From: Actinobacteria bacterium UBA7524
GTDB lineage: Bacteria > Actinomycetota > Coriobacteriia > Anaerosomatales > UBA912
Length of the DNA stretch: 25,919 nucleotides
Direction: 5' to 3'
Assembly (NCBI GenBank): GCA_002478275.1
Contig: DLMY01000031.1
Coordinates: 124,001-149,919 of the forward strand
The position numbers were made by a program. Each line of letters starts with the position of its first letter. The first letter of the stretch is position 1. Shown here one piece after another: positions 1 to 3,000 of the stretch.

Positions 1-3000
1 AGAGGACTTCCAGATGATCATGCCGTTCACGCCGCGGGGCCGCGACAACATGATCGGCTGGATGGCGGTGAAGTCCGACCCGACTGATTACGGCAAACGA
101 GTCGTCTACCAGTTCCCGAAGCAGCGCGTGGTGCTCGGTCCCGATCAGGTCCGTGCGCGAATCAACCAGGACGAGACGATCTCGCCGCAGCTGTCGCTGT
201 GGAGCCAGCGTGGCAGCCAGGTGCTCTTCGGCAACATGCTGGTGATCCCGCTCGAGGAGTCGGTGGTCTACATCCAGCCGCTCTACCTGCGCGCCGAGCA
301 GACCTCGATTCCCGAGCTGACGAGGGTGCTGGTCGTCTACGCCGACAAGGTCGAGATGCAGCCTGACCTCGCTTCGGCACTGCTGGCGGTCTTCGGAGAG
401 GTCGCGCCGACCGAGCCTGAAGACGGCGCCGAGGACATCATCGTCGACGCCGCACTCGCTCGCGACATCTATGAACGAGCGCTGGCCGCACAGCGAGATG
501 GTGACTGGGCCGCCTATGGGCGCCTGATCGATGAACTCGGCAACGTGCTGGCACGTCTTGCCGGAGCCATCGAGGCGCCTTCGCCCTCTACGGAGGAGAC
601 CCTCGCGCCATAGGGTTCGTACCAGGTGACGCAGTGGGCGCTCGCGTGTCAGACCCGCCGCCTAGACTCAAGTTGCGAGCCGAAAATGACGATACGGTAA
701 CAGTTCTGGTAGCATAGAACCTCACCCTTTGAGGAGGGCACTTGTGGCGCAGCAGTCGTGGAGACGACCGGGGGCGACTGCGTGGACCGGCGCCGGCAAG
801 TGCGACACGATATCTGGTCGACTCGGATTCGATCCGCATGGGCGGATGACCGAAGGCTCGTGATGCTCAAGGTCCGGAGCCGAACAGCATACTCGCTTCG
901 ATCGGCTGGAGACGACGGCGCGTGACGCCGCTCTCGCCGGGTGCGAGACAGCTAGCGACCCTCAACACACCTGTCTCAGGAACGCTCACGTTCCCACCGC
1001 ACTCCGTCGTCTGCACCGTCCCCTACCACGGAGGTCCGTGTGGCTTCAGCAAGACTGACCCATCGCATACTGTTCGCACTGAGCGTCATCGGCGTGATGT
1101 CGACGATACTCGGTGTGTCTCTCGGTGCGGGCTCGGCCCAGAGGGTGGCCTCGGCAAGTCCCGCCTCCCGTCCGGACGGGATACTCGGCATCGGTGAGCG
1201 TACGGTACCACCGGTAGAGGTGGTGCCTGCTTCGGAGAAGCTGGTCGTGAGCGACGAGTGGACGGTTCTTGAGACAACAGCGTCCGTGCGGGCTGCCGCG
1301 CCCATCCCCAAACCGGTGGTGCGGCGACCTGCGGTTCGTTCTGCGGCTGCGAGTAGCCGGGGAAGTGCGCCGGTGGCCGGAGGTGGCTGGCAGGTCGCGC
1401 GGGCTTCCTGGTACGGGCCCGGGTTCTACGGGCGCCGTACGGCCAGCGGCGCGGTCCTGACACAGGGCATGATGAACGTCGCCCACAAATCGCTGCCGTT
1501 CGGTACGCGTATCGAGTTCGAGTTCAACGGACGATCGTGCGTGGCGGTCGTCAACGACCGCGGCCCGTTCATAGCGGGACGCGTGTTCGATCTGGGCCCC
1601 GGTACGGCTGCGGCCCTGGGCTTCGGAGGCGTGCACAACGTGCGGTACCGGATCTTGGGCAGGTAGCCGGGTCGCCCCTCCTTCGCGTCACCCGCTGGGA
1701 CGTGTCTCGTTTGGGGTATCTTCGTCTATGTGTGTTGTTGACTCGACCCGACCGATGGAGGTACGAACATGCCCGACGCTGACCCCAAGCTGGGAGCGGA
1801 CGAGCGCACCATCATCGACGCGGTAGCCGACCTGCTTCAGACGGTCGTCGACTGGTTGCGCGACGAGGCCGAGGCCATCGTGCGCGAGAAGGTCGTGGGG
1901 CCGCTGCAGAAGCTCGGACTGACGGTCGCAGCGGCGTCGGCCGCGGCCAGCCTCGCGGTCCTTGGGCTCGCGTTCGTAGCCGTGGGGCTGTTCATGTTGC
2001 TCGGCACGGCGATCGGCTATCCATACGCGCTGCTCGTCATCGGCGGGGTCCTGCTTGTCGGCTCGGTGATCTTCACCCTGATCAAGATGAGGAACATGCA
2101 GCGATGACTCCCTCAGATGCCCCCGGCACTCCGCGTCTCACCGTTTCCGACGTCCGTCACCATGCCGAGGAGGTCCGCAACCTGGCCCTCGACAAGGTGC
2201 GTGCGCTTGCCGCCGAGGAGAGCACCAAAGCGGCGGTAGTCGGCGTTGTGGTCGTGATTGGACTGATGTCGGCCGCATACTACTTCGGGTCCCGTGCCGC
2301 GCGCCGGCGGCCCTGAGGGCGTCAAGCCGCTGACCCCGTTCGTGCTCGAGGCGTTCGAGCCTGTCGATGGGGGCGTCGAGATCCGGGTCCGCCTGACCGA
2401 CCCTGCCATGCGCCGAACCCTGGCATTCCCGCTCCTTGCCGAGGAGGTCTTGCGTCTTCTGCCGGGCATAGTGCGGCACCGGTGCGAGAGCGGAAGCACG
2501 CGCGGCGTGGTGGCCGAGCTTGCCGATACCGAGGTGCCACACCTCTTCGAGCACGTGACTCTCGAGCTGCTCGTGCAGGCAGGTCTTCCGCGCGACATGC
2601 GCGGCGAGACGCGATGGGACTTCAAGCGTGACGGGCGAGGTGTCTATCGCGTCTTCATTGGGTGCGAGGACGAAGCCGCAGTACGGCGCACGGCGGAAGG
2701 TGCGCTCGGACTTCTGGAAGGGGCTCGGCGCGCGGGAGCATGATGCTTGCGATCGCAGGAAGACCGCTTGTCCGCTAACCCGAGATGATCGAGGTCGGAC
2801 CTCCGCCATCGTAACGGTCGGCGAGTCGGCTCCACTCCCGCCACCTGGGAAAGCTGAAGGCGAAACCCGCCAGACCGAACAGGATGGTGACGATGAAGTA
2901 CACCCATGTGGCGCCAGTGGCGAAGCCCACGAACCCGAGCAAGGGCGGTACGGTCCAAAGCGCGTACTCCGCGATGGCGAATGTCGCGATGCGACCTTCG

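Follow-up and report, generated by a model that had tools for sequence, protein, structure and literature searches.

What is the structured RNA that precedes an RlpA-type cell-wall gene in Actinobacteria bacterium UBA7524, and does it control that gene? On the plus strand of the window, by which we mean the whole analysed stretch of 25,919 nucleotides, the 3' end of a UPF0182 membrane-protein gene (14-613; Pfam PF03699) is followed by an RlpA-type gene with a GTG start (1040-1666; DPBB_1 E 4e-14), which encodes a secreted protein of 208 amino acids with a hydrophobic N-terminus that is predicted from its family annotation to be a lytic transglycosylase. The initial annotation had described an RNA of about 230 nt between the two, transcribed from an extended -10 promoter, and had suggested riboswitch-like control of the lytic gene. 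Promoter and downstream gene were both borne out: the extended -10 box TGGTAGCAT is present at 707-715 (+), and 77 of 83 homologous leaders have the pattern TGnTAnnnT 280-480 nt upstream of the start codon (genome expectation 0.025 per 200 nt); a sigma-70 scan that requires a -35 box detected no promoter ahead of the leader. Placed from the -10 box alone, transcription would start at about 721-722. Because this box lies at 707-715 and its pattern is conserved before homologous starts, we infer that the element is the 5' leader, about 320 nt long (roughly 721-1042), of the lytic-transglycosylase mRNA rather than a free 230-nt RNA. Its end had been set 70 nt too early, at 965; the element continues to the ribosome site around 1035. 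The UPF0182 gene is the constant upstream neighbor, found 5' of the leader at 19 of 20 loci of one alignment set and at most loci that reach far enough in another set of homologs.

A leader-peptide attenuator is not supported: an upstream open reading frame with its own SD sequence occurs in a minority of 38 representative leaders, and these share neither frame nor sequence. No terminator-like site was found between RNA and gene in a scan of the window, and homologous leaders show no conserved antisense -10 box. As a peculiarity of the window's copy, GAGGAGG followed by GTG at 744 gives a 39-codon frame across the 5' domain (731-863) that homologs do not conserve. Folded as a single sequence, the leader does not exceed shuffles on either strand (z 0.73), so that all structural support rests on comparison.

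The motif had been reported from 12 of 41 genomes; conservation in relatives held up, but its range is far wider. A model of the 3' core built from sequence alone, with 41 training leaders (which match by construction), matches 124 of the 146 genomes of the order, nearly always once per genome; 120 of these genomes match at E<1e-4, and 22 of 25 families are represented. Three genomes missed by this model have the leader according to a longer profile. From 150 genomes of the phylum at large, the model gave just nine partial matches (E 0.002-0.01), which we read as chance. BLAST found the leader in 22 of 61 relatives (17 of these full-length by nhmmer), and the DNA upstream of 60 RlpA matches contains many diverged copies. 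Of 29 stretches from a pattern scan of GTDB, 18 are true copies and 11 are chance, and three metagenome loci came in addition; most of the true copies come from records titled Coriobacteriia, Anaerosomatales or Actinomycetota, and the Eubacteriales title of a single one is probably a depositor's label. In its own genome, the core word occurs eight more times, always within a long open reading frame that has no promoter box. The leader is distributed throughout an order of subsurface actinobacteria, of which two cultured members have been described (PMC9686372). At three loci (L104, L110 and L143) the leader is eroded or gone, as it is at two loci from beyond the order. At three others (L228, L229 and L230 in genomes G007, G019 and G037) promoter and gene are kept and the leader is reduced to remnants; G007 still has the paralogous leader described below. 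No known riboswitch substitutes for the motif in the 18 loci without it that were inspected, except at the known RF00379 control locus, and none of four loci examined has a UPF0182-adjacent ortholog beneath a canonical c-di-AMP switch.

Helices were tested on sequence-only alignments by comparing the energy of each leader's own duplex with the energy obtained when strands are swapped from one representative to another, for which we used 38 of the 83 leaders (<70% identity), and by counting two-sided changes on the tree against slid partners. A partial match (L109) had been removed before the first alignment, and a misaligned row (L220) was dropped to go from 84 to 83 leaders. Four of five negative controls were null and one reached p 0.03, and we therefore regard p values of 0.02-0.04 as weak. 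When 64 leaders were put through an all-against-all covariation G-test with a phylogenetic null, none of the pairs reached E<0.05 (best pairs 757-776 with E 0.30 and 912-1010 with E 0.77); the structure is supported by the targeted tests, which strongly back the conserved helices that had been proposed.

In the 5' domain, helix P1 (738-750 with 790-803; span 738-803) encloses the P2 hairpin and the 5' strand of P3, and its cognate duplexes are far more stable than swapped ones across the 38 representatives (-20.7 vs -13.4 kcal/mol, p 0.0002). P2 (753-759 with 775-781; span 753-781) shows 25 two-sided changes on the tree against 2-4 for slid partners (p 0.0002), and its loop bears one strand of pseudoknot PK1 (765-771 with 814-820; span 765-820), for which covariation in the alignments amounts to 24 such changes against 3-6 (p 0.0002) and whose strands vanish together in some lineages. 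A second pseudoknot, P3, pairs GGACC (784-788) with GGUCC (871-875; span 784-875) and is 92% paired, with 7 two-sided changes against 0-2 and a swap p of 0.0002. Since PK1 and P3 each cross P1, the domain is doubly pseudoknotted. The variable peripheral stem P4 (823-853) is weakly supported, being 73% paired with covariation not above controls; PK1 and P4 are missing in some families. All of these elements lie on the plus strand. The three words that the initial annotation quoted as fixed loops are present, at 763-771, 884-895 and 909-918, but two of them are paired strands: GACGAYCGG is lost along with its partner in several lineages, and GAGACGACGG contacts CCGUCGUC at 1004-1011. In genome G001, the promoter and 5' domain, without the rest, are duplicated exactly at one locus (L227:754-851); this extra copy lies about 615 nt ahead of the complete leader and is followed by unrelated sequence.

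The 3' half, likewise on the plus strand, begins with the conserved core (879-906). Here AA-N-AGCAUA at 883-891 is the only one of the supposedly fixed words that is near-invariant over the 83 leaders, specifically at A883, A884, G887, C888, A889 and A891. By comparison of these leaders, the 3' half holds two mutually exclusive, covarying and nearly isoenergetic folds. In fold A, as seen in minimum-energy folds, 892-896 pairs with 943-947 and 887-889 with 951-953, which frames an AUA/GCA internal loop; the former pairing has a weak swap p of 0.02, near the negative control at 0.03, and the latter (AGC/GCU) has p 0.39 with invariant strands, in which covariation cannot show. Fold A also includes a stem at 904-938, where GGC (904-906) pairs with GCC (936-938) and is extended by 908-912/932-936 and a top hairpin: both the whole stem and its A-exclusive part reach p 0.0002, and the S1 strand alone against its fold A partner gives p 0.30.

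Fold B is defined by a long-range helix between S1, GACGACGG at 911-918, and S3, CCGUCGUC at 1004-1011 (span 911-1011), which adjoins the ribosome site. This helix is paired in 95.6% of 338 cells, with 28 two-sided changes that touch five of its eight pairs; none of 500 shuffles is paired as highly, and slid controls range from 15% to 69%. On the tree of 38 representatives it accumulates 14 two-sided changes against 1-2 for slid partners (p 0.0002). Fold B further comprises the 879-906 hairpin (swap p 0.0002), a pairing of CCGGGUGCG (937-945) with the anti-SD strand at 998-1004 (span 937-1004; swap p 0.0002) and one of GAGACAG (945-951) with CUGUCUC (971-977), whose swap p of 0.04 is weak. A C/U-rich, G-poor linker (954-970; 813 C, 447 U, 242 A and 83 G over the 83 leaders) and a small hairpin common to both folds (979-994; swap p 0.0002) lie between these parts. 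The anti-SD CUCCGU (1002-1007) overlaps S3 and complements 1028-1033; this complementarity is conserved (-10.0 vs -6.6 for shuffles) without covariation between the two strands (p 0.12). The conserved segment 1015-1035 contains a YUGU-CC module, a weak SD hairpin and the SD sequence GGAGG (1030-1034), with U1017, G1018, C1022, C1023, G1031 and G1034 each present in at least 75 of 83 leaders. In one genome (L204 in G054), about 70 additional bases separate S3 from the SD and the SD-side module is duplicated in part.

How far the two folds differ in their effect on translation was computed for 72 leaders, with 11 of the 83 excluded for missing anchors and the pseudoknotted 5' domain ignored. In constrained ensembles the median difference of A minus B is -2.0 kcal/mol, and 44 of 72 leaders lie within 4 kcal/mol. 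Fold A is computed to leave the anti-SD strand free and fold B to trap it, and opening the region from SD to start costs 9.6 kcal/mol on average in A against 6.9 in B. The cost is higher by more than 1 kcal/mol in A in 51 of 72 leaders and in B in 5, and the two are within 1 kcal/mol in the remaining 16. Among these 16 is the window's own copy, where the opening cost is no different (10.6 vs 10.9 kcal/mol) and fold B is favored by 5 kcal/mol, although its anti-SD overlaps S3.

The genes behind the leaders are functionally coherent. An RlpA-type gene had been said to follow every copy, and this is the case for 68 of 83 (DPBB/RlpA); 10 of the others precede SLT/lysozyme-like genes, two precede genes containing PASTA domains, and three are followed by cut or unclassed genes, so that 78 of 83 have a DPBB or SLT-like gene. 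Pfam SLT scores over the cut-off in four of the ten SLT-like genes and is weak or absent in the rest; ESM Atlas neighbors are SLT-like for the single such protein compared. These counts stem mostly from one orthologous locus and one paralog and, because the former dominates, do not represent many independent placements. At three or more positions in the tree, the nearest neighbors of SLT-type leaders are of the DPBB type, so the catalytic domain has changed repeatedly between DPBB and SLT-like folds while the leader stayed in place at one and the same UPF0182 locus. At one locus (L005 in G040), the gene after the leader ends at 38 codons and the RlpA match goes on in another frame, reflecting a frameshift or an assembly error.

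A second locus of the same genome (G000:C26:1005-1308, minus strand; L226, L243) has the same type of promoter and a 300-nt leader ahead of a gene for a secreted protein without Pfam match but with SLT-like Atlas neighbors, and such a leader is present in all seven genomes that have this gene (L241-L247). What it has in common with the main leader is the core word, the module beside the SD and a long-range helix that ends at the same place; the purine/pyrimidine polarity of this helix is reversed, and the other helices differ. A model of this leader matches five main-locus leaders (best E 1.8e-7), the window's copy not among them, and not all five were recovered in a second search. It is a probable, though not certain, diverged paralog of the main leader. 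In one of its copies (L246) the promoter is nearer and most of the 5' domain is gone.

The leader is a real, order-wide and apparently undescribed cis-regulatory RNA, and it very probably acts as a cis switch for some trigger. Our preferred reading, to which we assign a probability of roughly one half, is a translational OFF switch of the riboswitch type that belongs to a new class and is set by a small molecule or ion. In computed fold A, the anti-SD and S3 strands would be free to pair over the SD and keep expression OFF, and in computed fold B both would be sequestered, giving ON. Fold A can form first during transcription, since it lies wholly within 738-953 and is complete before S3 is made, and it would act as the aptamer. 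We read it as the ligand-bound state because it forms before S3 and because the six core nucleotides are near-invariant: a ligand may bind around AA-N-AGCAUA and the AUA/GCA loop and hold fold A, so that the enzyme stays off, and without it S3 would invade S1 via a bulged CGA and reset the RNA to B.

Several features fit a riboswitch. The element sits in a 5' leader between promoter and gene; its structure is backed by covariation in the targeted tests, with no significance in the all-pairs test; its exclusive folds are coupled to an expression platform, with a computed SD effect that is absent in the window's copy; and its downstream genes are coherent. A wall-hydrolase gene in a host with a diadenylate cyclase is moreover a context of the c-di-AMP type, which bears on how the leader might work and not on membership in that class. 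Riboswitch-like control of the lytic gene, as originally suggested, has gained support as cis-action: an expression platform, which had not been shown before, is present at 911-918/1004-1011 and competes with a second covarying fold; the boundaries, the description of the loops and the exclusive link to RlpA had to be revised.

The few unpaired invariant bases, the peripheral parts that some families lack and a paralog retaining little beyond the core word speak against a small ligand and fit a protein site equally well. The same two folds and translational output could be triggered by a protein or small RNA that binds the AA-N-RGCAUA core, which we consider somewhat unlikely. Such a trigger would agree with the core word as the main feature common to a paralogous leader with differing helices, and with dispensable peripheral helices. 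However, pairing of the core with the raiA, 6S or RNase P RNA of the same genome stays at chance level and does not exceed shuffles, and a 5' domain with a double pseudoknot presumably exceeds the needs of a short binding site.

As in type I toxin mRNAs, whose nascent message is first OFF and converts later, the leader might also be a ligand-free folding or temperature device that adopts fold A when nascent and passes to B slowly, on heating or after processing, delaying the autolytic enzyme. We judge this improbable. That fold A is built from the earliest-made sequence, that A and B are close in energy and that all main-locus start codons seen are weak GTG or TTG would suit such a timer, but it would leave the invariant unpaired A883, A884, A889 and A891 and the conserved pseudoknots unexplained, and a conserved antisense promoter is absent.

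An independent structured RNA (738-953) that functions in trans and shares its promoter with the gene had been raised as a caveat from the start. Its occurrence once per genome in almost the whole order, as with a housekeeping RNA, and its compact knotted domain are in line with this, but its strands covary with SD-adjacent sequence, there is no terminator-like site, and some loci have lost it or keep it in eroded form, which weakens this option to the point of being highly improbable. The known housekeeping RNAs lie elsewhere: no model of RNase P, 6S or tmRNA matches the leader, and among five genomes examined the first two were found at other loci in all five and tmRNA in four, full tmRNA being missing from the window's own assembly (83% complete). 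A true raiA RNA (RF03072) is likewise present at another locus in all five (G000:C30:110580-110821 in the window's genome). According to the consulted parts of PMC10861870, the raiA motif resembles the leader as a multi-stem RNA of about 200-250 nt with two pseudoknots in Coriobacteriia, but is reported as an independent transcript, whereas the leader pairs with the SD region and has no raiA match.

Searches for known families confirmed the reported lack of an Rfam match: Rfam 15 matches neither the element, even with E allowed up to 10, nor any part of the window at gathering score, and the leaders of 16 further homolog loci (10 + 6) are likewise without a match. The c-di-AMP (ydaO/yuaA) model RF00379 again proved negative, with no match to the leader or its homologs. 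Block profiles built from 30 RF00379 loci gave no support to a circularly permuted c-di-AMP aptamer, scoring 8.5 bits against 8.2 for shuffles in permuted order and 8.6 against 8.4 in native order (self 32-64). A c-di-GMP-I switch lies at a separate locus (G000:C10:35677-35773) and once in each of four relatives, and a canonical FMN switch was found at another locus in five of five genomes (G000:C3:47918-48037 in this one). The FMN riboswitch RF00050 shares a few short words with the leader in the same order, but the leader has no match to its model, pairs differently (GGACC with GGUCC) and precedes genes that have nothing to do with flavins. Taken in order, three FMN blocks that were picked post hoc average 21.1 bits against 15.3 for shuffles (32.7 for this copy; self 57). 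Descent by rearrangement from a known aptamer, be it circularly permuted c-di-AMP or FMN, is very improbable. Word likeness by eye and FMN blocks above shuffles speak for it; against it, c-di-AMP blocks score at chance, nhmmer with either family finds no match in the leader, and the FMN blocks were chosen post hoc from words whose partners differ here. Words that we take to resemble those of the glycine riboswitch are confined to this copy and not conserved.

Literature on riboswitch candidates, surveys of structured noncoding RNAs, rlpA, Coriobacteriia/Anaerosomatales and a second class of c-di-AMP riboswitches yielded no such motif, with subscription papers and the PMC5737381 supplement (224 motifs) outside the scope of this search; nor did term searches in parts of PMC11109978 and PMC8632094. 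The former does describe the YjbJ motif (WRC-39-1), which precedes a predicted lytic transglycosylase and is a weak candidate for a riboswitch, but it is confined to Streptococcus.

If the preferred riboswitch reading is right, c-di-AMP would be a quite conceivable ligand, and taken over all readings it is a doubtful one; other candidates are cell-wall precursors or turnover products, and ions. It is our best guess by analogy of gene context, because diadenylate cyclases are common (141 of the order's 146 genomes encode a DAC domain, the host included), RF00379 was not found (0 of 61 genomes) and genes linked to RF00379 are often wall hydrolases: behind true RF00379 matches in the phylum, 15 of 29 open reading frames, chosen crudely as the longest nearby, encode wall hydrolases, one of them with DPBB. 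According to PMC9960051, nearly all genes that follow ydaO in Actinobacteria have to do with the wall, and c-di-AMP represses translation in an OFF mode, of which PMC11963983 gives further examples. Like RF00379, the leader precedes secreted wall hydrolases in Actinomycetota, a DPBB gene included, but it has two 5' pseudoknots and a strand-exchange platform in place of two three-way junctions with two pockets. Tentatively, a new class with a fold unrelated to ydaO could sense c-di-AMP, as a second class, or a metabolite of peptidoglycan turnover and control lytic transglycosylases throughout the order, and the paralog, retaining the core only, would mark the bases of the pocket.

Few new riboswitch classes come to light, and in most candidates no switch can be seen; in this leader both states are written in covariation and the gene context points to one physiology, the cutting of the wall. 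Natural deletions and the paralog mark the core, which sets up a hunt for the ligand directly. A second c-di-AMP aptamer, if true, would mean convergent RNA sensing of that messenger, and if a wall metabolite is what it senses, a signal that controls autolysins would come to light. The leader moreover marks nearly all of its order as a single-copy element and, with its double pseudoknot, is a target for structural work.

Elsewhere in the window, a stand-alone protein with a cyanophycin-synthase-like N-terminal domain (2294-2743; PF18921) is encoded after an actinobacterial holin-X gene, and a cluster at 6265-11359 contains genes for a FabH-like ketoacyl synthase III and a DUF362/4Fe-4S protein, together with more open reading frames of thiolase-fold appearance that have no Pfam match.
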